This document shows positions 668 through 19,787 of a DNA stretch of 35,876 nt, piece by piece. The position numbers were made by a program, and so were the translations under genes. The first letter of the stretch is position 1; every line of letters starts with the position of its first letter. Location of the stretch: the NCBI GenBank assembly GCA_031425655.1, contig JANPJS010000235.1, positions 1 to 35,876 of the forward strand. Direction: 5' to 3'. The notes beneath the pieces are model-generated. The model worked only from the letters and a program-made list of their open reading frames with translations, was not told the DNA's origin and did not search any database. The stretch comes from Abditibacteriaceae bacterium (GTDB lineage Bacteria > Armatimonadota > Abditibacteriia > Abditibacteriales > Abditibacteriaceae).

Positions 668-3175
668 TTAACTCACTTGAATCAAACTCAATTTATCGCC
701 CCAGAAGCGGCGCAGGGCGCGTTTTAAAGCGTCTTTTTCGTCTTCTAAATGCGGGTCGGACTGGACTAATTGAAAAGCAGCTTCGCGTGCTTGCTGGATG
801 ATTTCCACGTCTGAAATGATGTTGGCAAGGCGAAAATCGGGCATCCCGGATTGGCGCGTGCCGTAGAATTCGCCCGGCCCGCGCAATTGCAAATCGTGTT
901 CGGCGATCTCGAAGCCGTTTTGCGTTTTTACCATGACGCCGAGACGCGCTTTGCCTTCGTCGGTGCGCGGGTCACCCATCAGCACGCAAAACGATTTATG
1001 CACGCCGCGCCCGACGCGACCTCGCAATTGGTGCAATTGCGAAAGCCCGAAACGCTCGGCGTCTTCGATGAGCATAATCGTCGCGTTCGCCACGTCCACG
1101 CCGACTTCGATAACCGTTGTAGACACCAAAACGTCGTGCATTCCGGCGCGGAATAATTCCATTTGCTCGTCGCGTTCGATGACGTTCATCTGGCCGTGAA
1201 CCAGGCCGACACGCAAGTCGTGCAACTCTTCAGCGCGCAGGCGCTCGGCTAAAGCCGTCGCGGCTTTAAGATGCGCGATGGTTTCCGATTCCGATTGTTC
1301 GACAAGCGGGCAAACCACATAAGCCTGTCGCCCGCCTTTGACTTCGTCGCGCACCATTTTATAAGCGCGTTCGCGCGAATTTGGCTTGATGAGAACCGTT
1401 TTAATCGGCTGGCGGCCCGGCGGCAGTTCGTCTAAAACGCTCACGTCTAAATCGCCGTAAATCGTGAGCGCCATCGTGCGCGGAATCGGCGTGGCGGTCA
1501 TCACTAAAACGTCGGGACGCAGGCCGGCGATGCCTTTTTGCTGCAAAGCCGCGCGCTGCATCACGCCGAAACGATGCTGCTCGTCAATCACGCAAATGCC
1601 CAATTTGTTGAACTCGATGCCTTCCTGAATCAGCGCGTGCGTGCCGACGACAATCGAAACGCGACCTTCGCTCAAATCGGCTTGAATCCGCCGCTTGTTT
1701 TTGGCCTTGATACTGCCTTCGAGCAACGCCACCTCAATTCCCATCGGCTTGAACAAACGCGTCAGCACCGAAAAATGCTGCTCGGCTAAAATTTCCGTCG
1801 GCGCCAAAAGCGCGCCCTGATGGCCCGTTTGATGCGCCGTCCATAATGCGTAAGCGGCGACCATCGTTTTGCCGCTGCCGACATCGCCGTGCAGCAATCG
1901 GTTCATCGGACGCGGCGATTTTAAATCTTTGCGGACTTCGTTCATCACGCGCTTTTGCGCGCCGGTCAGCTTGAACGGTAGAAACTTCAAAAACTGCTTG
2001 ATTTTCTCGTCTTCGACGATGTGACGCAGCCCTATTTCTTCGGTGTGCGCGTTGATTTTCTTTTGCGCTAAAGCCACTTGCAAAAGGAACAATTCTTCAA
2101 AAACCAAGCGTTCGCGCGCGGCTTTTTGTTGTTCCCAACTGTCGGGAAAGTGAATCTGGCGCAGCGCCGTTTCGAGGCCGGGAAAGTTGTAATGCGCGAG
2201 AATCGAGTCGGGCAGCATTTCTTCCAAGTTTTCGCCGCACATTTCCAGCGCGTGATGAATCGCGCGGCGAATCGGGCCTTGATTCAAGCCTTCGGTCATC
2301 GGATAAATCGGCACGATGCGCCCGACTTGTAGCGTATCGTTTTCGCCTAAAATCTCAAATTCCGGCGCGTCAATTTGCAAAAGCCCGTTGAATTCGCCGA
2401 TTTTGCCATAAACGAATAATTGCATTCCCGGCTGAAACTGCTTTTCCCGATAAGGCTGATTCCACCATTGCAAATCGGCGCGACCTGAATCGTCGCCGAC
2501 GCGCACGCGCGTGATTTTGCGCCCGCTCATGCGCCCGCCCATGACTTTGGTTTGCGGCGGATACAAAACCGTCACCATGACCGCTTCTTTAGCGCCGACT
2601 TCGACCGAGGCCAGTTCTTTCACCACGCGCCGGTCTTCGTAGCGCATCGGAAAGTAATAAAGCAGATCGTAAACGCTTCGCAGTCCGAGCTTTTCCAACA
2701 GTTTGGCGCGGTTGGGGCCGATGCCTTTGAGATAAGTCAGTTCGGTGGAAAGATCAGGGCGAAAGTTCTTTTTAGGGGCTGGAGGCTGGGGACTGGGGGC
2801 TGGGAATTCGTTGCCGGTTGTCGGTTGCTGGCTACTCAATGCTGATTGCTCGATGCTGGTTGCCGGTTGCGTCTCGCCGTTTCCCAGCCCCCAGCCTCCA
2901 GCCTCCAGCCCCTCTAAAAGCCGCTGCGAATCGGCCACGATTTTCGCGCGCAGGGCGGCGTCGGCATCGACGTAGCGCCTCCACAAATCGCGCAAGCGTT
3001 GCAGCGAAAATTCGGCGTCCTGCGGCAATTCGCCAAGTTGAATCAGTTCGAGGGCGCGCTGTGTTTGCGCCAAAATGTGCGCGTCCAAGCCGCCAATCGC
3101 ACCGGCGTTGGCGTAATCGGATTGGATTTCCGCCGGCAGAGGACGGCGGATTTTGTCGAGGATTTCGTGGAGCAT
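668..3175 (-). CDS. recG: ATP-dependent DNA helicase RecG with N-terminal extension
   Basis: LKGIGP/DLLYYFPMRYED wedge region, MNRLLHGDVGSGKT (Walker A), DEQHRFGV, MTATPIPRT, QLHQLRGRVGRG, GFEIAEHDLQLRGPGE. Confidence 0.97.
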   Translation of the reverse strand: MLHEILDKIRRPLPAEIQSDYANAGAIGGLDAHILAQTQRALELIQLGELPQDAEFSLQRLRDLWRRYVDADAALRAKIVADSQRLLEGLEAGGWGLGNGETQPATSIEQSALSSQQPTTGNEFPAPSPQPPAPKKNFRPDLSTELTYLKGIGPNRAKLLEKLGLRSVYDLLYYFPMRYEDRRVVKELASVEVGAKEAVMVTVLYPPQTKVMGGRMSGRKITRVRVGDDSGRADLQWWNQPYREKQFQPGMQLFVYGKIGEFNGLLQIDAPEFEILGENDTLQVGRIVPIYPMTEGLNQGPIRRAIHHALEMCGENLEEMLPDSILAHYNFPGLETALRQIHFPDSWEQQKAARERLVFEELFLLQVALAQKKINAHTEEIGLRHIVEDEKIKQFLKFLPFKLTGAQKRVMNEVRKDLKSPRPMNRLLHGDVGSGKTMVAAYALWTAHQTGHQGALLAPTEILAEQHFSVLTRLFKPMGIEVALLEGSIKAKNKRRIQADLSEGRVSIVVGTHALIQEGIEFNKLGICVIDEQHRFGVMQRAALQQKGIAGLRPDVLVMTATPIPRTMALTIYGDLDVSVLDELPPGRQPIKTVLIKPNSRERAYKMVRDEVKGGRQAYVVCPLVEQSESETIAHLKAATALAERLRAEELHDLRVGLVHGQMNVIERDEQMELFRAGMHDVLVSTTVIEVGVDVANATIMLIEDAERFGLSQLHQLRGRVGRGVHKSFCVLMGDPRTDEGKARLGVMVKTQNGFEIAEHDLQLRGPGEFYGTRQSGMPDFRLANIISDVEIIQQAREAAFQLVQSDPHLEDEKDALKRALRRFWGDKLSLIQVS
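2774..2913. repeat. Heptamer-based inverted repeat embedded in frame in recG
   Basis: Arms 2774-2806 and 2881-2913 are 31/33 complementary (GGGGCTG/GAGGCTG units). The loop holds further GTTGCCG-like heptamers. Confidence 0.85.
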
Positions 3176-3185
3176 GAGAACCGCA

Positions 3186-3255
3186 GAATATCGAACAAGG
3201 AATGTCGAATGACGAAATTTTCATCGTTCGACATTCTTTGTTCGATATTCGATAT
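3186..3255. repeat. Intergenic hairpin of GAATATC/GAATGTC-like heptamers
   Basis: GAATATCGAACAAGGAATGTCGAA...TTCGACATTCTTTGTTCGATATTC fills the MscS-recG spacer. Confidence 0.85.
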
Positions 3256-3894
3256 TTAGCGAACGCGGCGCGGCATTTCCTGTCCCATGACATCTTGCGG
3301 CGGCGCTTCCTCGCGGCGGCGGTGCATCACCACGTGGCGGATTTCGCGGTTGGCGATGTTGTGCATTTTGCCTTCGCTATCGCGCAGCCACACGCCGCGC
3401 GGTGAAAATCGTTCGACCGCGCCTTGAACCGTTCCTCGCTGTGAATCAATTTCCAGCATATCGCCGACGGCAATCGCGTCCTCCGAGAGCAGCGAATAGC
3501 CTTGCACGGCATCTTGAATCATGCTCATGGCGCCGACGCCGAAGACTAAAATCAGCGCGCCGACCACGATGGCAACCGGCAAAACCGGAATCGAAAACAT
3601 CGGCATCGAACGCTCGAAAATGCTCAGCACGGCGATCATTGCGCCGATGTAACACAGCGTGCGAATCAGAGTTTTGGGCGTTTGGCGCAAATAAGTGCGC
3701 CGTTTCACGCGCCAGCTTTGCTCGCGTCCGGCATCAAGCGTAATCAGCGGCGTTACCAAACCTTCGACTTTGCGCGAAAGCCACCACGCCAGTCCCTCGA
3801 ACAGCGCCGCGATGAAAATCACCTGCACCGCAAGGCTGATGAGATTTTGCAGTTGAAAACTGTTTTTGAGCAGCGTTTGAAAATCGTAGTTCAT
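3256..3894 (-). CDS. Short MscS-family (mechanosensitive channel-like) membrane protein, 212 aa
   Basis: Three hydrophobic segments followed by an MscS beta-domain pattern (IQDAVQG...EDAIAVGDMLEI...GAVERFSPRGVWLRDSEGKMHNIANREI). Start reassigned to ATG 3894 because the longer ORF translates the upstream repeat. Confidence 0.75.
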   Translation of the reverse strand: MNYDFQTLLKNSFQLQNLISLAVQVIFIAALFEGLAWWLSRKVEGLVTPLITLDAGREQSWRVKRRTYLRQTPKTLIRTLCYIGAMIAVLSIFERSMPMFSIPVLPVAIVVGALILVFGVGAMSMIQDAVQGYSLLSEDAIAVGDMLEIDSQRGTVQGAVERFSPRGVWLRDSEGKMHNIANREIRHVVMHRRREEAPPQDVMGQEMPRRVR

Positions 3895-4033
3895 GGTGGT
3901 TGGTTGGGTTGTTGGTTGGGTGGTTGGGTGGTTGGGTGGTTCGGTGGTTCGGTGGTTGGGTGGTTCGGTGGTTCGGTGGTTCGGTGGTTTTGCGTTCTCA
4001 ACCACCCAACTACCTAACAACCCAACTACCTAA
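3895..4033. repeat. Octamer tandem repeat hairpin (GGTGGTTG/GGTGGTTC versus CAACTACC)
   Basis: About 11 G-rich octamers, a short loop, then about 4 complementary C-rich units. Ends directly at the MscS ATG. Confidence 0.85.
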
Positions 4034-4041
4034 CGCCCCAC

Positions 4042-4731: not shown

Positions 4732-5649
4732 GTGATGCGCGTTCCCGCAAATGTTCTCGTCGCTTTGTGGACTTCAACCCTTATGGCACCTTCTTTCGCC
4801 GAGCCTTTGCAGCGCCTCGTTGACGATGCCGCACAAAGCGTTTTGCAGCGCTTCGCCGATAAAGGTCTCAAGCCGGAAAATCTGGCGATTTCGCTGATTA
4901 ATTTGAGCGATCCTCAACGTCAAAGCTCCGCTCATTATCGCGGCGAAGCGCCGATTTATCCGGCCAGCGTCGTCAAGTTGTTTTATCTGGCCTGCGCGCA
5001 GCGTCAACTGCAAGACGGCATCTTGAAAGATTCGCCCGAACTGCAACGCGGTTTACGGGACATGATTGTGGAATCAAGCAACGACGCGACGGGCTATGTT
5101 CTCGATTGCATCACTGATACGGTCAGCGGCCCCGAACTTTCGCCGGACGAATTGAAAATGTGGGGCGAAAAGCGCAACGCCGTCAATCGCTTTTTTAGCG
5201 GCCTCGGTCATACCAATTTGAACGTCAACCAAAAGACGTGGAACGAAGGCCCGTATGGCCGCGAACGCCAATTTTTGGGGCCAAACTACGAAAACCGTAA
5301 CAAGCTCACAACCGACGCGACCGCGCAGTTGCTCGCTAAGATTGCCCTGAGCCAATGTGTTTCGCCGGAGCGCAGCCTTCAGATGATGGAATTGCTAAAG
5401 CGCGATTTAACCAGCAATAACGATTCGCAGTCCACCGATTTCAGTGGCATCGCGCTCAAAGAAATTCCCGGCGCCAAACTGTGGTCGAAAGCCGGTTGGA
5501 CAAGCACCGCGCGCCACGACGCGGCTTATATCGAAACGCCGGACGGCAAACGCTTTGTGCTGGTGGTTTTCACAACCGGCGTAGCCAACGAAAAAGATAT
5601 TATTCCATTTGTGGTGCGCGCGGTAGTTAAAGGATTGTCCGAAAATTGA
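4732..5649 (+). CDS. Serine hydrolase, class A beta-lactamase-like family
   Basis: YPASVVK (SxxK), ESSNDA (SDN-like), SKAGW...HDAA (KTG-like), signal-like N-terminus. Confidence 0.85.
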   Translation: MMRVPANVLVALWTSTLMAPSFAEPLQRLVDDAAQSVLQRFADKGLKPENLAISLINLSDPQRQSSAHYRGEAPIYPASVVKLFYLACAQRQLQDGILKDSPELQRGLRDMIVESSNDATGYVLDCITDTVSGPELSPDELKMWGEKRNAVNRFFSGLGHTNLNVNQKTWNEGPYGRERQFLGPNYENRNKLTTDATAQLLAKIALSQCVSPERSLQMMELLKRDLTSNNDSQSTDFSGIALKEIPGAKLWSKAGWTSTARHDAAYIETPDGKRFVLVVFTTGVANEKDIIPFVVRAVVKGLSEN

Positions 5650-5674: not shown

Positions 5675-5709
5675 AAAAAGCAAAGGCCCGGCTGACTTCA
5701 GCCGGGCCT
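5675..5709 (-). terminator. Intrinsic terminator hairpin, probably the original pyr operon terminator (may act bidirectionally)
   Basis: AGGCCCGGCTGA-CT-TCAGCCGGGCCT stem followed by a T-rich tract on the minus strand, 5 nt after the orphan carB stop. Confidence 0.75.
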
Positions 5710-5714
5710 CTTCG

Positions 5715-5811
5715 TTATTCGCTTTCGCTTTCGTAGCACGAATAATAATACGGCGTTTGTGCCTCGAATTCGCCGGCGCAGGTGTCCACCATTTTGTAAA
5801 CCGGCGCGATG
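5715..5811 (-). pseudogene. Orphan duplicated 3' tail of carB
   Basis: 87/97 nt identical to 7736-7832. Encodes [31 protein letters not shown] versus ...YEKESE*. Confidence 0.95.
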
Positions 5812-5844
5812 CAAGATTACTTACTGCGGGCCTGCCAACAATAT

Positions 5845-6507
5845 TTAAACAGTGCCTTCACTCAATAGAGCTTGAGCTTTATACAACCTATCATTACCTG
5901 CGTTGAATTCGTATTTCAAGTCAACCAACAAACCGTGCAAAGTGTAGATATGCCAACTCACAGGACGAAAGGCCAGAGTAGCACCGCGATCTCGCTGTGA
6001 ATCGCGTTCTAACTCAAAAGCGATGAGCAAATGATGTCCGTCGCGGGTGATCTTGGAATCTGCAGAAGGCGAAAGGAAAAACGAGCGATTCGTTGAAGTT
6101 CTACTTTTTGCGCTATAGGTTTTGCATTCCAGATAACACGTTTTCTCTTGGTCATAAACCACTTCAACGTCAGGATAGCCGGTGCTCTTACCTTTACCGC
6201 TTTTGGTTTTGGGCTTTGCAGCCTTTAAACCAGAATCGATTAAGGCTTGAAGCACAAAAGGCTCAATGGCGTTTCCCGCTTCGTTGGGGCGTCCGGCGTA
6301 AATGCCGATTTCATTGGCTGTGTGGGCAGCTTTATCTATCGCTTGCTCTAATTGCTGCAAAAGCGTGGCATCTGCCAGATTATTTTTGTCGAAACGAACA
6401 ACTTCATGCCCAGACAAAGCTTTAATGATGACCGCGAACGGCTGATTCTTAATGGGACGCAGAAATTCACGCACCATCGTTTCCAACTGCACTTTCTCTT
6501 GATCCAT
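5845..6507 (-). CDS. Putative type II restriction endonuclease (PD-(D/E)xK)
   Basis: GYPDVEV...YLECKT catalytic motif; 2 nt downstream of a DNA MTase; lower GC than flanks. Confidence 0.7.
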   Translation of the reverse strand: MDQEKVQLETMVREFLRPIKNQPFAVIIKALSGHEVVRFDKNNLADATLLQQLEQAIDKAAHTANEIGIYAGRPNEAGNAIEPFVLQALIDSGLKAAKPKTKSGKGKSTGYPDVEVVYDQEKTCYLECKTYSAKSRTSTNRSFFLSPSADSKITRDGHHLLIAFELERDSQRDRGATLAFRPVSWHIYTLHGLLVDLKYEFNAGNDRLYKAQALLSEGTV

Positions 6508-6509
6508 TT

Positions 6510-7739
6510 TTACCCTTTGCGAAAAACCATGATGCTCTCGCTTTGCATGATGTTGTAAAGACCAAAAATGGTCTTTTCAATTTGGCGAATGGGAGTTAGT
6601 CCCAATTTTCGGCAAGCTGCGTCGGCAAATTTCACGGTCGGCACTTCACAGGTTTGATAAACCGCGTTGCCTAAAATCAAAACGCAGTGCCCGCCGGGTT
6701 TCAAAACGCGCTCAATCTCCGACAACACCTGCAACATATCCTCATTAAAAAGTTGAATGCGTTCTTTTGGAGCACCACGTAAGCCGATAAAAGAAGACCG
6801 AGCCTCGTCCAAGTTACAGCCCAGCACCGAAAGTGCGTGCGCGTCGTTGGCAATATAATCCAGTGCGATGGAATAAGGTGGTGATGTAATAACCGCGTCT
6901 ACAGAATGGTTTTTCAGAGGCAAAGCACGCGCATCATCTTGAGAAATCTGTGCCGTCTTAGTTTGCAAACCAAGTTCTGCGCTTACCTCCGCATAATCTT
7001 TAGCTGAAGCTATCATGGCTTCCACATTGCGCGCAAAAGAGGCAACAAAGTCGCGGCCCCGCCGCGCCTTATCGCTGTGAGAAAGAAGTTCGGCTACCTG
7101 AAAAAAATCGCGTGCTGCGACATCGGGAATCCGACTGATAACCTCGTTCAACGTGCCCGTTTTTGAAGCATGAAACAGCGACGGCTCAACAGCCGTAACT
7201 ACCTCTTCTTTAACCGCCTCAATAGCTGGCAGCGCGGTATGCGATTGTGTTTTGACGCGGCCAAGCAGCGTGCAAACTGGTGAAATATCAAAACCAATGA
7301 AATCAGCGCCAATCAATTGAGTTTCCAGAGCAGCCGTGCCACTGCCCATGAACGGGTCTAAAACAGTATGTTCTGGCTTCACCCCAATTATATTGAGCAA
7401 GGCGCGAATCATTTGCGGGTGGAATTTGCCTTTGTAGGGATAAATCCAGTGTGTTAAAAATTGGTTGGGTGAGCGCGTGCGGTTGCGCGCAGTCAAAATT
7501 GCATAGTCGCTGCGCTCTCCATTTACCTTCGCAAAATAAGCGGTGCGTTGTCTCAGCAACAGTTCCTTCGAGCGACCGGATTCGACATCGTCAAAAGAAA
7601 AGTGGCGCAAATCCCCGTTGGTCTCGTAGCCGCCACACAATGTTTGTAATTCCCATTGCGCTAACTCCAACTCATAAATAAATTGCGTGTGACGGAAAAG
7701 TTCCGCTTCTTTACAAACAGAACGTGTTACTGCTGTCAT
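6510..7739 (-). CDS. Amino (probably N4-cytosine) DNA methyltransferase
   Basis: [20 protein letters not shown] (motif I), ITSPPY (motif IV, SPPY typical of m4C MTases), RVLKPGG. ATG overlaps the carB stop (ATGA). Confidence 0.85.
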
Positions 7740-9382
7740 TCACTTTCCTTTTCGTAGCACGAATAATAATAGGGCGTCTGCGCCTCGAATTCCCCCGCAC
7801 AGGTGTCCACCATTTTGTAAACCGGCGCGATGTTCCACGCTTTGCGCCGTTCGCGGATGGCATTTTCCCCAACGCCCATCAACTCGGCCAAATTGCGGTC
7901 GCTGAAGCCGTTTTTCTTGGCGTTGAGCAAGGTTTCTTTGGTCAAATCGTCGAACGGCTTGCCGCGCAGACTGGTTTCCAGCGCGACGAGCTTTTCAAGC
8001 TTGTGCAGAAACCAGCGATCCACGCGCGTCAGATCATGAATTTCGTCCAACATCATGCCGCGCCGCAGCGCTTCGGTGATTACAAAAAGGCGCTCGTCGG
8101 TGGGAGTTCGCAGCTTTTCTTCGATTTCCATTTCCGACAGGCGGCTCAAACCTTTGCCGCGCAAGCCGTAAACGCCGATTTCGAGCGAGCGAATCGCTTT
8201 CATCAAAGCGCCCTCGAAGCTGCGGTCAATGCTCATTACTTCGCCGGTCGCTTTCATTTGCGTAGTAATGCGCCGGTCGCTGCCGCCGAATTTATCGAAG
8301 GGCCAGCGCGGAATCTTAACTACGCAATAATCCAAAGCCGGCTCGAAACAAGCCAGCGTTTTTTTCGTGACGGCGTTGGGGATTTCGTCGAGATGCAAGC
8401 CAATAGCGATTTTGGCCGACACGCGCGCAATCGGATAGCCCGTCGCTTTGGAAGCCAGCGCCGAGCTGCGACTCACGCGCGGATTGACTTCGATGACGTA
8501 ATAGCGGCTCGAATGCGGGTCAAGCGCAAGCTGCACATTGCAGCCGCCTTCAATGCCCAACTCGCGGATGATCTCCAAGCTCGCGGTGCGTAGCATTTGA
8601 TATTCTTTGTCCGAAAGCGTTTGCGAGGGCGCGACCACGATGGAATCGCCGGTGTGAACGCCCATCGGATCGAAGTTTTCCATGTTGCAAATGGTGATCG
8701 CGGTGTCGTTGGCATCGCGCATCACTTCGTATTCGACTTCTTTCCAGCCGCGCAAATAACGCTCAAGCAGAATCTGGTGAATCATCGAGCGGTCAATGCC
8801 ACTGCGCACAAATTGCTCGAATTGCGCGTCGTTCCACGCGATGCCGCCGCCGGTTCCGCCCAATGTATACGCCGGGCGAATAATCAGCGGATAGCCGATT
8901 TCGTCGCGGAAAGTGCGCGCTTGTTCGGCGGTTTCGCAAATGGCGCTTTCGGGCACCGGCTGGCCGATGGCGATCATCGTTTCCTTGAACAAATCGCGGT
9001 CTTCGGCCTTTTTGATGGATTGCAGCGGCGTGCCGAGCAGCGTCACGTTGTATTTGTCCAAAATGCCCGCTTCGGCTAATTGATAGGCCATATTAAGCCC
9101 GGTTTGCCCGCCCAGCGACGGCAAAAGCCCGTCGGGGCGTTCGCGCGCGATGACTTGCTCAATGAAGCCGACCGTCAGCGGTTCGATGTAAACCGCGTCG
9201 GCGGTTTCGGCATCGGTCATAATCGTGGCCGGATTCGAGTTGACGAGCACAACCGACACGCCTTCCTCGCGCAACGAAGCGCAAGCCTGCGTGCCGGCGT
9301 AATCAAACTCGGCGGCCTGTCCGATGACAATCGGCCCGGAGCCGATGACCATCACTTTTTTGATGTTGGGATTTTTAGGCAT
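7736..9382 (-). CDS. carB: Carbamoyl-phosphate synthase large subunit, N-terminal half only (548 aa, split CarB)
   Basis: [63 protein letters not shown], ending [23 protein letters not shown]. No second ATP-grasp or MGS domain. Confidence 0.93.
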
Positions 9383-9387
9383 GGGTG

Positions 9388-9957
9388 TCAAAAATTGGAA
9401 GGGGCAATGACCTTGCTGACAGTAACGGTTCGGGATTTTGTGCCGTCGAACGCACTCAGTTCGGCTGAAAACTTTACCTGCTTGCATTTTCTCATCGCGG
9501 ATAAATCGAAAATTTCTTCATGCACAGATTGGTTGCCCTCAAAACGGCGATGCACCCCTACGCCAAAGAACATTTGCCCTGTTTTTAAATCCGTTGCCTG
9601 TGCACGCAGGTTGGTGTAGCCGCATGGCGAATAAAATTTAGCCCGAAAGAGAATGCCATTTTGGGGCGCAATTTTCGGTGTAGGCCAGCCGGAAAGTTGC
9701 TTTAAGCCACTGACAGTCCCACCTTGAAGAAGGCGTCTCTGGGTTTCGCCTTCTTCATCGCGCCATTTTTGAATCGTTGTGGTGGCTGCCGGTTCATGGA
9801 CGACGACACATTCCACCACCCGCACGTTTTTTACGTCGTTCTGCGCTTTAATGGCGTCGAGTCGCCGTTGACGCCAACTCCAAGCACCGGCGAAAACAAT
9901 CACGGCCAACACAGGCAGCGTGAGCATCAAAAATGTTTTTGCCTCAACTCGTTTCAT
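9388..9957 (-). CDS. Hypothetical protein with N-terminal TM anchor
   Basis: ORF track. TM helix followed by WRQRR; ATGA overlap with the vapC stop. Confidence 0.6.
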
Positions 9958-10391
9958 AGTGCGCCTCGCAGAAGCGCGATGAAGCCTTCCTGTTCAAAAT
10001 GGTTGTCGTGCGTGAGAATCTCGAAGATGCCGAGTTCGCGCATGATCTGCATCGAAATGCAGTCGGTGAGCGAGTAATTTTTGTCGGGGCGTTGCGCGTG
10101 CAGGCTTAAGCCGGACATCAGCATTTCACGACTGGGGGGCAACACGAGCATCTCTGGTGACACAATCACCTGTCGCACGAAGTGATTGGCCTTTTGGCGC
10201 ATCCAATCGCCGCTCCGCGAGAAGAAATTGACGACTTCGATCAAGACCGCATCTGTCGTAAAAATCTGCGCGCCTTCAGTTTCCATCGAAGCAAACTGCG
10301 CGGCTTGGTGCAATTCATCGGTGCTATCAATAATGGCAACCCAATACGACGTATCGGCAAAAACCTGCCGCCTCGCTTGTTGCCCTATCAT
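9954..10391 (-). CDS. vapC: PIN-domain (VapC-family) toxin
   Basis: VFADTSYWVA...VLIEV...YSLTDCISMQIM...ILTHDNHFEQEGF acidic PIN motifs. Start set at ATG 10391, overlapping the antitoxin stop. Confidence 0.88.
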   Translation of the reverse strand: MIGQQARRQVFADTSYWVAIIDSTDELHQAAQFASMETEGAQIFTTDAVLIEVVNFFSRSGDWMRQKANHFVRQVIVSPEMLVLPPSREMLMSGLSLHAQRPDKNYSLTDCISMQIMRELGIFEILTHDNHFEQEGFIALLRGAL

Positions 10392-10594
10392 TTGTTGCCT
10401 TTCTCGCTTCGTTTGGGCCAGCCGTAGAGATAATGGTCGTGGTTTTCTGCACCATCGGTTGGCAACTGCGCCAAAACTTCCTCCGGTGCGTCGGCCATTT
10501 CCTCTATAATGCGCCTCCAAATCGGCACAAAGCCTTCAGGACGCGGCTTGTTGCTCTGCTCAGTCACGTAATCCAGCAAACTCTTCTCTTGCAT
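10388..10594 (-). CDS. Putative antitoxin of the PIN toxin
   Basis: 68 aa, directly upstream and overlapping vapC. C-terminal LPTDGAENHDHYLYGWPK motif recalled from small partners of PIN toxins. Confidence 0.75.
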   Translation of the reverse strand: MQEKSLLDYVTEQSNKPRPEGFVPIWRRIIEEMADAPEEVLAQLPTDGAENHDHYLYGWPKRSEKGNK

Positions 10595-10707: not shown

Positions 10708-11832
10708 TCACTTCCTCTCCTTCACCATCGCCGCAAAATCATCGAACAAATGCGCGTTATCCTTCGGGCCGGGGCACGCTTCAGGATGATATTGGACGGA
10801 AAACAGCGGTTTTTCGCGGTGGCGCAGGCCCTCGATGGTGTTGTCGTTGAGGTTGATATGCGTGATTTGCACGTCGTCGGGCAAACTTTCGGGCACGAGC
10901 GCGTAACCGTGATTTTGCGTCGTGATGTGAACTTTGCCCGTGATTAAATCCTTGACCGGATGATTGGCGCCTCTGTGGCCGAATTTCAGTTTGAAGGTTT
11001 CGCCGCCCAACGCGCGGCCCAAAAGCTGATGGCCCAAACAAATGCCGAACATCGGCATTTCGGGCTGCTGCGCTTGGATTTCCCTTATGACGCCCACTTC
11101 GTCGTCTAAAGAGCGCGGATCGCCGGGGCCGTTACTCAGCATCAAGCCGTCCGGCTGCCACGCCATAATTTCTTCGGCGCTGGCCGTGCAAGGCAAAACC
11201 ACGACTTCCAAGCCGCGCTCGCTCAAACTCCGCAAAATGTTGTATTTCGTGCCATAATCAAGCACGACCACGCGCGCTTCGGCATCCAACGGCATTTCCC
11301 ACTGGCCGGGCGGCGCGTTCGACTCGCCTTTTTGCCATTGATAGGCCTTGCTCGTCGTGACTTCGCGCACGTAAGTTCCGGCGTCGTAAGGCGGCAGATT
11401 TTTTAAGGTTTCAAGACCTTCTTCTGCCGTGTGTTCCGTGGTTATCATGCCCAGCATCACGCCGTAATCGCGCAGCTTTTTCACTAAGGCGCGCACGTCT
11501 ACGCCGCTGATGCCGGTGAGATTATTCTTCGTGAGATAATCGTCGCCGCTTTGCTGGCTGCGATAATTGGACGGCATATCGCACATTTCCTTGACGATAA
11601 AGCCCGCTACCTGCGGCCCGATGCTTTCGCCGTCTTCGGAGTTGAGACCGTAGTTGCCGATCAGCGGATAAGTCAGCGCCACCAACTGCCCGGCGTAACT
11701 GGGGTCGGTGAGAATCTCCTGATAACCCGTCATCGAAGTGTTGAAAACCACTTCGCCGGTCACCGTGCCCGGCGCGCCGGTCAGCGCGCCTTCGTAAATC
11801 GTGCCGTCAATAAGAATGAGTAATGCTTTCAT
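10708..11832 (-). CDS. carA: Carbamoyl-phosphate synthase small subunit
   Basis: GEVVFNTSMTGYQEILTDPSY, LSNGPGDP, FGICLGHQ, FGHRGANHPV, SVQYHPEACPGP. Start moved to ATG 11832. Confidence 0.96.
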   Translation of the reverse strand: MKALLILIDGTIYEGALTGAPGTVTGEVVFNTSMTGYQEILTDPSYAGQLVALTYPLIGNYGLNSEDGESIGPQVAGFIVKEMCDMPSNYRSQQSGDDYLTKNNLTGISGVDVRALVKKLRDYGVMLGMITTEHTAEEGLETLKNLPPYDAGTYVREVTTSKAYQWQKGESNAPPGQWEMPLDAEARVVVLDYGTKYNILRSLSERGLEVVVLPCTASAEEIMAWQPDGLMLSNGPGDPRSLDDEVGVIREIQAQQPEMPMFGICLGHQLLGRALGGETFKLKFGHRGANHPVKDLITGKVHITTQNHGYALVPESLPDDVQITHINLNDNTIEGLRHREKPLFSVQYHPEACPGPKDNAHLFDDFAAMVKERK

Positions 11833-11910
11833 TTTGGGTGGTTGGGTAGTTGGGTAGTTGGGTAGTTGGGTGGAGTAAAACCACCTAACCACCCAACTAC
11901 CTAACCACCT
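11833..11910. repeat. Octamer tandem repeat hairpin (GGTAGTTG / CAACTACC)
   Basis: Fills the whole DUF4139-carA spacer; same unit family as 3895-4033. Confidence 0.85.
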
Positions 11911-13537
11911 ACTCTGTCAGTCCCGTCAAAGTCATTTCGCGTGGGCATTCCACGACGTAATCGGAGTGCAATTCGCGTTTGGCACCGGCAGGTAAGGTCA
12001 ATTTCCACGTCATCACGCCTAAATCGTCGGTTTCGGGCTGCGGTTCGGCGCGATGTGGCTTGACTTTGATTTGCTCGTGGCGTGAAACCGGAATCTGATC
12101 GAGAATCGTCAGTTCCACGCGATGCGGTTTCAGGTTTTCGACTTCGATTTTGAAATCGTAACTTTGCCGCCGCACGTTGCCGATGAAATTTTTATCCACT
12201 TCGCGCCGTGCCAATTCTCGCTTGGCGCGCACCTGTTCGTCGGGGCCGAGAAAGAGCTTGAATTCCTGACCCGGCGCGGTTGCGTCGAGGTAAGCGGCAC
12301 CGACAAACGCGCCGTCGCGGAAGATGTTGGCCTGGCCGGCCAGCAGCGACAAACCGCTGTCGTTAAGAGCCGTGGCGCGCAAATAAGCCAGCGCGGCGCG
12401 GCGCGGAACCGCCTGATAATCAAGGCGAACCGGAAACTCGTGCTGCGCGATGGTCGCGCGGTGCGATTCGCCGTCGGCGGGAATGCTGTGGCGGCGCGGC
12501 AGATTGAAACTCACGGTCGCACCGCTGCTTTCGACTTGCGCGGTTTCGTATTCGGCTTCGACGGTCTGTTCCATGTAATCCACAGTCTGCATGGCTAAGA
12601 CGGCCTCTTCCGGTTCAGCGAGGCGTGGTTTTATGCGGCCCACCCTCGGCCTTTCCATCGCAGGCGCGGGCACTCCCGCGTAAAACGGACGCACAATATC
12701 TACGTAACGCGGCTCCAACTTCGGCGGCAGCGTGCCCATGCTGGGCCGCGCCGTCGAAAGCGTCAGTGCCACATCGTTCCAGTCTTCGCCGGTGTTTTGT
12801 CCGATTTTCGCTAAATACGTCAGCTCCAATTTGCCTTCCAAAACGCCGTCGGGCGAAGCGGGCGGCGAAAGCTGCACGCGCGCATCGTAAAGCGGCGCCC
12901 AACTCGCCTCAGGCACGGTGTAACTGATTTCCAAATCGAATTCGCCCGGCGCGGCGCTTTCCAGCGCGACGGTCACGCACTGTTCGCCGGCTTTGCGGGC
13001 GCCGGAAAACTGCTTGAGGCGCTGGCCGAGCATGACTTGCTTTTCGCCATTGGCGCGCTTTTGGGCTTCCAACGCAGCGCGCTGCTCGTTGATGCTTTCC
13101 ATTTGCGATTGCACGAAATCGAGCAGTTGCGCGGCGCTTTCCAGCGAAGTCGTGCCTTCGGCCAGGCCGCGCGCGAAGCGTTTGGCGGCGCTGTCGGCAA
13201 GCTCGCGCACGGTCGAAGCGCGGCGCTCTAAAATCTCGTCGCGCTTTTGCAGTTTTGCGCCTTCGTCTTGCGCCGCTTCGAGTTCGCTTTGCGCGGTGCG
13301 GGCTTCAGCGTGCGGCGTTTTTTCCAAAGGCCGAAAATGGCTTTCGACGCCGAGAATCTTCACCGCGACGGCGCCTTTACCTCCGGCGCGCAGCGAGTTT
13401 TCGTCGAGTCCGAGGGGCAAAGCGGCGATTGTGAACTCCTGCGCGCCACCTTCGAGCTGAAGCGAGGCGCGCCGCGTAATTTGCGCGCGGTCGGTGAAAA
13501 CCGTGACTTGTGAAATAGGCGCTTCGATATCGGGCAT
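11909..13537 (-). CDS. DUF4140/DUF4139 (MuiA-like) protein
   Basis: ISQVTVFTDRAQITR N-terminus, coiled coil, ASWAPLYDAR, QNTGEDWNDVALTLSTARP, ILDQIPVS. Confidence 0.85.
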   Translation of the reverse strand: MPDIEAPISQVTVFTDRAQITRRASLQLEGGAQEFTIAALPLGLDENSLRAGGKGAVAVKILGVESHFRPLEKTPHAEARTAQSELEAAQDEGAKLQKRDEILERRASTVRELADSAAKRFARGLAEGTTSLESAAQLLDFVQSQMESINEQRAALEAQKRANGEKQVMLGQRLKQFSGARKAGEQCVTVALESAAPGEFDLEISYTVPEASWAPLYDARVQLSPPASPDGVLEGKLELTYLAKIGQNTGEDWNDVALTLSTARPSMGTLPPKLEPRYVDIVRPFYAGVPAPAMERPRVGRIKPRLAEPEEAVLAMQTVDYMEQTVEAEYETAQVESSGATVSFNLPRRHSIPADGESHRATIAQHEFPVRLDYQAVPRRAALAYLRATALNDSGLSLLAGQANIFRDGAFVGAAYLDATAPGQEFKLFLGPDEQVRAKRELARREVDKNFIGNVRRQSYDFKIEVENLKPHRVELTILDQIPVSRHEQIKVKPHRAEPQPETDDLGVMTWKLTLPAGAKRELHSDYVVECPREMTLTGLTE

Positions 13538-17514: not shown

Positions 17515-18948
17515 ATGAGTGCGAAATTTAGTCGTCGGGAACTACTCAAAGGCGCGACGATTGGGGCGGCGGCTGTGGCGGGCGCCCGCGTTTTTAACAC
17601 GCCTTACATCATGGCCGCCGAACCGGGCAAAAAGCTGCGCACAGCAGTCATCGGCTGCGGCGGGCGCGGCACGGGGTTTCATGTGCCGCTCGCGGCACGC
17701 GAAAATCTGGTGGCTCTGGTGGACATGGACGACAGCAAAATCGCGGGCGCCATCAAAGAGGGCAAGGCGAAGCAAAAGGATTTCAACGCCGAAGCCGTCA
17801 AGGGTTTCAACGATTACCGCAAGTTTTTCGACGTGATGGCTAAAGAAGTGGACGCGGTTTTCATTGCCACGCCGAACCATCATCACGCCCTGCCGGCGAT
17901 GCTGGCGATGGAGCGTGGCATTGCCTGTTACGTGGAAAAGCCGATAGCTTACAACGTCCACGAATCGCGCCTTTTGGCCGAAGCCTCCAAAAAATACAAA
18001 GTCGCCACGCAAATGGGCAATCAGGGCCATTCGCAAGAAGGCTATCGCCGCTTAGTGGAATATATTCAGGCGGGCGCGATTGGCAACGTCACGCAGGTTT
18101 ATCATTGGAGCGATTGCGAAAACGGCGGCGTTGGGCCGCGTCCAGCGGCGGCTCCGGTGCCCGCCGGCCTCAACTGGGATAGCTTTATCGGCCCGGCGCC
18201 TTATCGTGAATTTCACGCGCAACTGCATCCGCATTCGTGGCACGGCTGGCACGATTTCGGTGGCGGCGCTCTGGGCAACCGGGGCTGTCATATCATGGAC
18301 GGCGCGCATTGGGCGCTTAACCTCAACGGCGCCTGCGCGATTGAAATGGAGGATGCCACCGGCGGCACCGATGAACGCTTTCCTCTGGCAGCGCGCATTC
18401 GCTGGGACTTCCCGCAGCGCGGCGCGATGCCGCCGGTTAAAGTCTGGTGGTATGATGGCCGTCGGAAAGGCGCGACGAGTAAAGAAACCGGCGCCACCGC
18501 CGACAGCGTAGTGGATGCCGACCGCAATCGCCCGCCCATTCTGATCGAACTGGAAAAGAAATACGGCAAAGAGCGTTTCGAGGGCAACGCCACGATTTAT
18601 GTCGGCGATAAAGGCATGATGTATACCGGCTTTTATGGTGGCGGCGCCCGCATTCTTCCTGAAGAATTGCATAAAGCCACGCCGGTGCCCGAAATGAAGT
18701 TCGAGCGCATCAAAGGCAGCCACACCGACGACTTTTTGCGCGGCGTGCGCGACCCGACTCACAAGCCGTGCGCCAATTTTGAAGTCTCGGCGCCCCTGAC
18801 CGAACTGACTTTGCTCGGCGTTTTAGCGGCGCGGCAGGGCGTCGGCAAGAAAATCGAGTGGGACGGCAACAAATGCACGAATATGCCCGCCGTCAACGCC
18901 GATTTGCAGCGCGAAGGCCGCGAAGGCTGGAAACTGCCGAAGATTTAA
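17515..18948 (+). CDS. Gfo/Idh/MocA-family oxidoreductase with Tat signal
   Basis: SRRELLK twin-arginine motif, VIGCGGRG, DAVFIATPNHHH, YVEKP, QMGNQGHS, GGGALGNRGCHIMD. Confidence 0.92.
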   Translation: MSAKFSRRELLKGATIGAAAVAGARVFNTPYIMAAEPGKKLRTAVIGCGGRGTGFHVPLAARENLVALVDMDDSKIAGAIKEGKAKQKDFNAEAVKGFNDYRKFFDVMAKEVDAVFIATPNHHHALPAMLAMERGIACYVEKPIAYNVHESRLLAEASKKYKVATQMGNQGHSQEGYRRLVEYIQAGAIGNVTQVYHWSDCENGGVGPRPAAAPVPAGLNWDSFIGPAPYREFHAQLHPHSWHGWHDFGGGALGNRGCHIMDGAHWALNLNGACAIEMEDATGGTDERFPLAARIRWDFPQRGAMPPVKVWWYDGRRKGATSKETGATADSVVDADRNRPPILIELEKKYGKERFEGNATIYVGDKGMMYTGFYGGGARILPEELHKATPVPEMKFERIKGSHTDDFLRGVRDPTHKPCANFEVSAPLTELTLLGVLAARQGVGKKIEWDGNKCTNMPAVNADLQREGREGWKLPKI

Positions 18949-18998: not shown

Positions 18999-19042
18999 GT
19001 TTTGGTGGTTAAAAAGTGCATCGCGCGGCTAAAATAATCGGT

Positions 19043-19276
19043 ATGGCAAAAGTTTACGAAGAAATCGTGGATTTTATCGCGGGCGGCACTACGCCGGGCA
19101 GCGTGATTGCCTTTCAGCCCTCGGCGGAAGCCAAAGCGCGGCTGGAAACGCTGGTGCAACGCCACAAAAACGCGACTCTCACATCTGACGAAGCAGCGGA
19201 GTTAGAGCATTTTCTCCACGTTGAACACTTGATGCGCTTAGCCAAAGCGCGAGCACGGCAACGTCTGGCGCAATGA
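19043..19276 (+). CDS. Small helical protein, putative antitoxin-like partner of the HNH nuclease
   Basis: 77 aa, ATGA overlap with the HNH gene; TAAAAT -10-like box 7 nt before the ATG. Confidence 0.7.
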   Translation: MAKVYEEIVDFIAGGTTPGSVIAFQPSAEAKARLETLVQRHKNATLTSDEAAELEHFLHVEHLMRLAKARARQRLAQ

Positions 19277-19689
19277 GTGAAACCTACATCAGCGCCGTAT
19301 TGCGCCGTTTAGTCGCCCAGCGTGCCAACAGGCGCTGCGAATACTGCCTGATTCACGAAGACGACACGTTTTTCGGCTGCCACATAGACCACATCGTCAG
19401 CGAAAAGCACGGTGGCGCGACTGTGGCGGAGAATTTAGCTTATGCCTGCGCGTTTTGCAATTTGCATAAAGGCAGCGATTTAGGATCGTTGACTGCTGAA
19501 GGCGAATTGTGCCGTTTTTTCAATCCGCGTGCGGACGTCTGGACCGAACATTTCGCGCTCGAAGAAGCCATTATTCAACCTCTGACAGCAATCGGAGAAG
19601 TCACGGCGCGCATTTTTCAGTTCAATCATCTCGACCGCTTATTGGAACGCGAAACGCTGATTGAAGCCAGACTTTATCCACGATTATAA
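19273..19689 (+). CDS. HNH endonuclease
   Basis: RCEYC...HIDHIVSEKHGG...NLAYACAFCNLHKG, FFNPR. Confidence 0.9.
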   Translation: MSETYISAVLRRLVAQRANRRCEYCLIHEDDTFFGCHIDHIVSEKHGGATVAENLAYACAFCNLHKGSDLGSLTAEGELCRFFNPRADVWTEHFALEEAIIQPLTAIGEVTARIFQFNHLDRLLERETLIEARLYPRL

Positions 19690-19711
19690 GCCTGTGACTG
19701 CACAATAAACC

Positions 19712-19787
19712 CACAAATATGCCCGCCGTCAACAACGATTTGCAGCGCGAAGGCCGCGAAGGCTGGAAACTGCCGAAGTTGGGCTGA
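19712..19787 (+). pseudogene. Orphan duplicated 3' tail of the Gfo/Idh/MocA gene
   Basis: 19712-19778 is 64/67 identical to 18876-18942. TNMPAVNNDLQREGREGWKLPKLG* versus TNMPAVNADLQREGREGWKLPKI*. Confidence 0.95.

Follow-up and report, generated by a model that had tools for sequence, protein, structure and literature searches.

We analysed 35,876 nucleotides of contig JANPJS010000235.1 from an Abditibacteriaceae bacterium (GCA_031425655.1), hereafter called the window, and found a restriction-modification (RM) gene pair, a DNA methyltransferase (MTase) followed by a restriction endonuclease (REase), lying between two copies of the 3' end of carB1, which encodes the N-terminal half of the large subunit of carbamoyl-phosphate synthase, a protein that is naturally split here. 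The two copies, a functional tail that ends carB1 and an orphan tail beyond the RM cassette, are, judged from their sequences, two selected alleles, both once part of working genes, rather than a gene end and its drifting copy (P<0.01 for in-situ duplication followed by drift). The pair was probably added by one-sided (additive) homologous recombination with DNA of a close relative in which it already stood behind carB1. This reading is carried by the two alleles, the translational tie of the cargo to the functional tail, the lack of an integrase, and the variable breakpoints of the same scar at 25 genes of the genome. The features are listed in Table 1.

The two copies form a 97-nt direct repeat with a spacing of 2021 nt and are identical at 87 of 97 positions. 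On the minus strand, the gene-proximal copy makes up the last 32 codons of carB1, and the distal copy is kept in register with its own stop. Numbered from the gene-proximal end, the ten differences lie at nt 34, 37, 40, 52, 55, 61, 84, 85, 91, and 96, and comprise seven synonymous codons, one K/S codon (2 nt), and a TGA/TAA stop change, while the gene-proximal 33 nt hold no difference. An identical run of this length (10 identical codons) has a P of about 0.017 (0.016-0.018) at the gene-proximal end and of 0.21 anywhere in the tail, which makes it modestly unusual for that end only. No further copy of either tail was found in a search of the 5.98-Mb genome. The insert of 1924 nt contains only two open reading frames (ORFs), the MTase and the REase, and no other mobility gene or recombinase was found in or beside it. 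Its GC content is 0.47, with a GC content at third codon positions (GC3) of 0.45-0.48 (MTase 0.48, REase 0.45), versus a GC3 of 0.70 for carB1/carA. The hairpin 3' of the orphan has 13 GC-rich pairs followed by a T-run, and promoter-like sites numbered 2 against 2.4 expected. An earlier note on this DNA had described the 97-bp repeat with its 87/97 identity, the identical 33 nt, the synonymous differences, the ATGA overlap of carB1 with the MTase, and the terminator after the orphan; all of these observations hold, and its view of the cassette as an insertion was supported. The note also held that recombination between the repeats would excise the cassette cleanly; judged in silico, recombination within the 33 nt would leave carB1 in frame and closed by the peptide of the orphan.

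When an in-situ duplication with a neutrally evolving orphan was simulated, no more than one amino-acid difference arose in 0-0.2% of runs, and codons with a changed amino acid held no more than 2 nt of difference in 0.2-0.8%. The observed divergence is biased to synonymous sites and so points to two alleles beyond the inner 33 nt, both of which once served in working genes. The sole amino-acid change (K/S) lies at the residue that varies most across 26 relatives.

The functional tail is also tied to its cargo. The carB1 stop overlaps the MTase ATG within ATGA, an in-frame stop precedes this ATG, and codons 2-14 of the MTase hold no other start, leaving the ATG as the only canonical start before the conserved region. 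The differences at nt 84, 85, and 96 create the Shine-Dalgarno-like motif and the ATG of the MTase, and the orphan has neither. Such motifs are in use in this genome, with 245 of 1015 starts preceded by one versus 31 of 1015 control positions. Since the MTase start and its Shine-Dalgarno motif lie in the functional tail, this tail and the MTase form one unit. The argument is limited by a cassette-free same-genus relative (G002), whose carB1 ends with the same Shine-Dalgarno motif and ATGA, so that tails of this kind pre-exist.

The anchor was named carB in the earlier note; it is more exactly carB1, an N-terminal half of 548 aa. It aligned with positions 2-549 of the 1052-position CarB model (TIGR01369), and positions 546-1052 are encoded on another contig (C130). 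In relatives of the family, too, the frame is about 548 aa long and ends at the residue where carB1 ends, and this family-wide split ruled out a carB cut short by the insertion. As the split is shared across the family, the 97-nt tail is a true gene end, and either tail can only have come from a relative in which carB is split in the same way. The split lies at the same residue throughout the family (f1) and in part of the class; the halves are unlinked within f1, adjacent in four genomes (G019, G020, G027, G028), and fused in several other members of the phylum. Separate genes for the two synthetase halves, CPS.A and CPS.B, have been described in Aquifex aeolicus (PMC6022934), and the arrangement here is alike in that respect, although it belongs to an independent lineage and the halves of the present family lie far apart or on different contigs.

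We propose that a donor fragment from a close relative, made up of a carB1 end, the MTase, and the REase, would have recombined a single time with the resident carB1 end, within or close to the identical 33 nt, and that its far end would have been attached without homology, whether after trimming and recircularisation of the molecule or across sister arms. In this way the incoming end would take over as the functional one, displacing the resident end, now the orphan, and its terminator downstream. Expression of the MTase would then come from the carB1 transcript and precede that of the nuclease; a reverse exchange between the tails would remove the cassette, unless cells that lose it are killed by restriction. 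Housekeeping recombination of the RecA type is assumed, and uptake by transformation seems likely; comEC and dprA are present in the genome, which permits transformation and does not show it. The donor, the order of events, the uptake route, and excision are the parts of the scheme that we infer. An experimental parallel was described in E. coli, where incoming DNA with homology at one end gave a duplication in 56 of 60 recombinants, with 109-950 bp duplicated in the 14 that were sequenced (PMC3240628).

As to direction, the orphan is probably the resident end and the functional tail the one that came with the cassette. The earlier note had reached the same direction, and its conclusion stands as the likeliest, while the codon evidence it had relied on does not. 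The contrast it drew in GC-ending codons was selective, as GC3 is 0.645 in both tails and, of the 8 sense codons that differ, 2 have gained G/C on the orphan side, 2 on the side of the functional tail, and 4 end in G/C in both. At carB1, the log-likelihood ratio (lnLR) under host codon usage favours the orphan by 3.7, and that under RM codon usage also favours the orphan, by 1.5; the codon score of the functional tail falls within the range of carB1 itself (9th percentile), and the carB1 locus is the most extreme of the 29 pairs found in the genome. Pooled over the 29 pairs, the more host-like member of a synonymous codon pair lies in the orphan in 44 of 100 cases (44 vs 56), with a summed lnLR of -5.6. 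With equal GC3 and no orphan preference genome-wide, codon and GC content were rejected as a test of direction. A lower-GC RM source for the functional tail, as the earlier note assumed, was likewise not supported; the tail stops at the split point specific to the family and shares 90% identity with the orphan, which indicated that it came from a close relative.

Comparison of both tails with those of relatives, a check suggested in the same note, gave a mixed outcome. In the two same-genus relatives, the tails score alike (85 vs 84 in one and 83 vs 84 in the other, of 97 positions), whereas 23 of 26 relatives are nearer the orphan, these being mostly distant and related to one another. A single carB1 tail and none of this RM pair were found in 25 relatives, none of which is conspecific and in which the downstream neighbour differs. 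A sliding-window search for a longer donor segment within carB1 gave no signal, since the drop at nt 1300-1550 was common to all pairs.

The same scar recurs across the genome (G000). Following a genome self-comparison, a stop-anchored scan with fixed filters detected 29 orphan tails downstream of 25 of 3499 genes, and none upstream. Differences pooled over the 29 pairs comprised 104 synonymous versus 53 non-synonymous nt and were distributed 26/26/105 over the codon positions (P 2e-8 against the in-situ null). The anchors are unrelated housekeeping genes, including prfA, hflX, argG, ahcY, lepA, glnA, pyc, secA, and recG. Their cargo includes RM genes, further methylases, a NotI-family nuclease, PIN and DUF3368 toxin-antitoxin genes, many genes of unknown function, and one IS200 transposase, with no integrase among 69 scanned cargo ORFs. 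Repeat lengths ranged from 35 to 175 nt, the inner identical run was shorter than 10 nt in 9 of 29 pairs, and no motif was common to the junctions; with such variable breakpoints and no shared motif, the process is not site-specific. A melA-like gene (L194, G000:C70:19600-25500) is followed by four serial orphans of 108, 60, 87, and 87 nt, which are three lengths at one gene, and glnA by two. Each melA-like orphan closes a cassette of one or two genes, with a separate terminator hairpin in several cases, and together they form an integrase-free cassette array.

Polarity could be read at some of these loci. The argG orphan agrees with three same-genus genomes by 7:2, 6:3, and 7:1, a clear polarity towards the orphan as resident. 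Among nine anchors compared with same-genus genomes, pyc, glnA, secA, and melA were mixed and carB1 tied, and downstream synteny goes with the orphan at three of the nine and with the functional copy at none. At carB1 itself, the 5' head is duplicated in two relatives, G009 (119 nt) and G014 (85 nt), with toxin-antitoxin cargo between the copies; at 8 of 8 diagnostic sites the orphan head of G009 agrees with G018, the closest relative of G009, again pointing to the orphan as resident. The density of orphans in relatives was 2 of 507 genes in G009 (0.8 Mb), 0 of 243 in G011 (0.4 Mb), and 0 of 329 in G002 (0.53 Mb); pooled, these samples gave 2 of 1079 genes versus 23 of 3487 in the present genome cut in the same way (P 0.09). 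At lepA, none of 26 relatives had an orphan within the flank covered.

Several observations weigh against additive recombination from a relative or against the direction we favour. The donor state was not seen, the REase being present in none of 26 family genomes and carB1 adjoining none of 80 related MTase loci; the check proposed in the earlier note, to look for the pair behind carB in other genomes, gave no case in these loci. No conspecific empty site was found either, the search giving 2 distant matches and no 2021-nt joint in 15 of 21 pieces listed. At carB1, the same-genus relatives split 4:4 and 4:4, giving no polarity, and they carry K like the functional tail. The genes prfA, recG, and lepA lean slightly to the functional copy in the same-genus comparison, and G016 splits 4:4 on the G009 carB1 heads. 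At least one of the 29 pairs (that with IS200 cargo, on C70) is probably a different kind of repeat. Terminator-like hairpins follow the functional copy in 10 of 25 genes and the last orphan in 7 of 25, and so do not mark orphans in general. The comEC and dprA searches also match E. coli and 9-10 other controls.

An alternative that we consider unlikely is an older insertion with a true target duplication whose orphan was refreshed later by allelic exchange with a cassette-free strain, through crossovers in the 33 nt and downstream. The orphan would still be the end of a cassette-free allele, perhaps an immigrant one, and the functional tail might belong to the resident lineage. Such a history accounts for two selected alleles and for identity limited to the inner end (P ~0.017), and it fits the K of the same-genus relatives and the Shine-Dalgarno plus ATGA end of cassette-free G002. 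It needs two events per locus at 25 loci, however, and a single additive event per case explains more simply both the four differently cut serial tails and the polarities at argG and in G009.

The cassette might instead descend from an integrase-driven element, as its relic or as cargo mobilised in cis, with an attP that restored the carB1 3' end, as e14 does at icd, and the 33 nt as att core. The same anatomy surrounds prophage e14 at icd/icdC (PMC13626634), six tyrosine-recombinase genes are present elsewhere in the genome, and the identity does lie at the inner end. We regard this origin as very doubtful: there is no recombinase in or beside the cassette, the 25 targets are unrelated and without a common motif, breakpoints vary within one gene, the inner run is below 10 nt in 9 of 29 pairs, and the carB1 copies of G009 differ up to 7 nt from the inner end. 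In addition, no second carB1 tail was found in 25 relatives, and the REase was not found in phage or plasmid collections. The description of the 33 nt as att-core-like in the earlier note was not supported, as there is no integrase, fixed breakpoint, or shared motif.

An assembly artefact, in which an empty chromosome and a separate circle or a second strain were joined via the 33-nt identity, is highly improbable. The 31-mer graph of the possible source run does break at the 33 nt, and among the pieces listed none bridges the carB1-side joint (7773-7832). In that run, however, one unitig covers 5782-7772 with zero differences at a depth of 10.2, versus 10.5-11.9 for the flanks, so that cassette and carB1 depths agree. 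A contig from another study matches 5697-5851 without differences and joins the cassette, the identical 33 nt, the orphan, and the terminator stem, a join that exists only in the integrated state; 28 other pairs have the same anatomy. The earlier note had called for reads spanning both junctions, and the cassette-orphan joint is thereby bridged and the carB1-side joint is not, among the pieces listed. Plain insertion that duplicates a long stretch of the target, with an orphan drifting neutrally since then, which is the standing description of such structures (PMC2853133) and fits some decayed orphans such as that of recG with its internal stop, is scarcely tenable given the simulations (P 0.0001-0.008 at carB1), the pooled P of 2e-8, and the lone amino-acid change at the most variable residue.

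Both genes of the cargo look intact by sequence. In the MTase, motif I (residue 128) precedes motif IV SPPY (residue 285), which is the alpha-order, and the enzyme is likely of the m4C (N4-methylcytosine) type. The PD-(D/E)XK motif of the REase (P112-D113...E127-x-K129) is intact and invariant in the 13 aligned of 68 homologues. An REase homologue adjoins 56 of 80 related MTases, which come from many phyla and share 43-59% identity with the present MTase; within the phylum, the REase is present in 3 of 400 genomes, and a PDB search with it gave 0 matches. The recognition site of ScaI, to which the REase shows a weak match, is AGTACT, which contains GTAC. The MjaV system of Methanocaldococcus jannaschii targets GTAC with m4C methylation (PMC11033074), and the present pair resembles it in having an m4C-type MTase and an REase whose PADLOC family also matches M. 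jannaschii. The pair is quite probably MjaV-like with GTAC as predicted target, a prediction made through the family relation to M. jannaschii, an organism that has several REases.

GTAC is absent from the cassette and occurs 53 times in the genome versus 5795 expected (observed/expected ratio, O/E, 0.009); CTAG is almost absent too (O/E 0.032). Among relatives without this REase, the O/E of GTAC was 0.011 in G002, 0.12 in G009, and 1.16 in G011, a patchy loss within the family. As GTAC is depleted in the REase-free G002 and G009, its avoidance is older than the cassette. In other taxa, GTAC near loci holding both RM genes (M+R loci) was 0.58 vs 0.85, matched by CTAG at 0.43 vs 0.83, and GTAC depletion near these loci was rejected as a specific signal. 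Relatives of the MTase in three unrelated hosts (L111, L122, L134) are likewise flanked by a gene end and a duplicate of it (127, 54, and 46 nt, the duplicate in L122 being an AMMECR1 tail). That this RM family is unusually prone to flanking repeats was not shown, with 2 of 48 M+R loci versus 3 of 522 control windows (P 0.06; 7 too-short loci left out).

Table 1 Features at the carB1 locus (window positions)
Feature	Position	Strand	Remarks
carB1 (548 aa), encoding N-terminal half of carbamoyl-phosphate synthase large subunit, which is naturally split	7736..9382	-	TIGR01369 positions 2-549
33-nt tract identical in both tails	7800..7832	-	likely crossover or duplicated tract, not att core
Functional carB1 tail, 32 codons including TGA	7736..7832	-	probably came with the cassette
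AGGA Shine-Dalgarno-like motif, 6 nt before MTase ATG, inside functional tail	7746..7749	-	absent from orphan
DNA methyltransferase, 409 aa	6510..7739	-	Pfam N6_N4_Mtase, PADLOC MTase_II; ATG overlaps carB1 stop
Type II restriction endonuclease, 220 aa	5845..6507	-	PADLOC PDLC03511 E 6e-28 (REase_II); weak RE_ScaI match
33-nt spacer 3' of REase stop, ending at non-homologous joint with orphan tail	5812..5844	-	unique in genome
Orphan carB1 tail, in register, own TAA	5715..5811	-	probable resident end
Intrinsic terminator-like hairpin 3' of orphan	5682..5711	-	scores on both strands
Convergent flanking gene, Beta-lactamase2 (serine hydrolase) family	4732..5649	+	resident neighbour rather than cargo; syntenic with recG-MscS block in same-genus G002

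Other parts of the window and the carB1 surroundings of relatives showed further cargo. A recG tail is repeated (123-167 vs 668-712, minus strand) after about 500 nt holding two small coiled-coil-like ORFs (178-438 and 442-648), the orphan having an internal stop. A third case involves the tail of a GFO/IDH oxidoreductase gene (about 18871-18948 vs 19707-19784, plus strand), repeated after a small pair formed by an ORF at 19016-19276 and an HNH-like ORF at 19273-19689; this orphan is two codons longer and hence lay outside the strict filter. Between carA and carB1 (9388-10594, minus strand) lie a PIN toxin-antitoxin pair and an unknown gene of 189 aa, and in relatives the same gap holds DUF4268 (G013, G006), PDDEXK_3 (G007), an MTase with GIY-YIG (L167), or a GNAT toxin-antitoxin pair (genus g2). 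In G014 (L049:4515-6328), a different RM pair, an N6_N4 MTase with an MjaI-family REase, converges on the carB1 3' end without a repeat. Intergenic 8-nt tandem repeats of the GGTTGGGT type at 3884-4040 and 11826-11912 are paired with their reverse complements as long inverted repeats, and 7-nt inverted arrays of a similar kind lie at 2769-2918 and 3186-3250.

The mechanism of RM insertion with long flanking duplications and no recombinase has been open since such structures were first described (PMC2853133), where only a DNA-break hypothesis is given. At carB1 and the sibling loci, the copies on either side code for protein and have diverged, which makes their origin open to testing, and the two selected alleles at carB1 and over the 29 pairs point to ordinary additive recombination between relatives. 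Additive recombination in turn gives a population-genomic test, namely finding the donor and empty alleles. Particular to this locus, the incoming tail doubles as the translation start of the methylase, and a likely GTAC-cutting system entered a genome with 99% of its GTAC sites lost. More tentatively, what is called long target duplication may be no duplication but allele displacement: in this lineage, any conserved gene end might serve as an integrase-free landing pad, donor tails might carry defence cargo between relatives (here with the ribosome-binding site and start codon of the cargo), and repeated rounds might build integron-like arrays after housekeeping genes, whose units could be excised by their own tails.

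Taken as a single locus, the RM pair at carB1 is ordinary, being a real and clean case of an already known kind, long target duplication or C-terminal displacement. Prophage e14 carries mcrA. Like e14 at icd/icdC (PMC13626634), the carB1 locus has a functional 3' end on one side, a synonymously diverged C-terminal remnant on the other, and restriction genes as cargo, while e14, a prophage of 15 kb, brings its own machinery for excision and uses a fixed att site, and neither is present here. The RM insertions with long target duplications in PMC2853133 share M and R genes, a size below 20 kb, direct repeats above 30 bp, and no mobility gene, and their repeats often span the stop of a gene, leaving it intact, as here. 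In the rows of Table 2 of PMC2853133 considered here, the H. influenzae, Thermus, and Xylella repeats are 44-47 bp and near-identical, whereas the carB1 copies differ by 10% at selected synonymous sites; moreover, the same scar here carries non-RM cargo too, at two dozen genes, and beyond the inner 33 nt the two copies do not both derive from the target sequence. Our literature searches found no paper linking such duplications to donor alleles through synonymous divergence, the figures of PMC2853133 being covered in part. Hotspots free of mobile genetic elements that arise from recombination at flanking core genes are known (PMC5635113), through double crossover and not displacement. In E. coli single-crossover duplications (PMC3240628), a trimmed, recircularised donor likewise integrates once and duplicates 109-950 bp of the anchor end, with a laboratory plasmid and identical homology there and a natural, diverged allele here. 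In rhs C-terminal displacement (Jackson et al. 2009, PMC2935791; type VI secretion system arrays, PMC5361080), a gene end that arrives on a circle undergoes one recombination and displaces the incumbent end downstream, and serial orphans give arrays. In the present genome, too, orphans lie downstream in the same orientation, with variable length and divergence at the level of alleles. The exchanged tip in rhs is a variable toxin domain and itself the object of the exchange, whereas here the displaced end, a conserved housekeeping tail, serves only as the homology handle for unrelated cargo.

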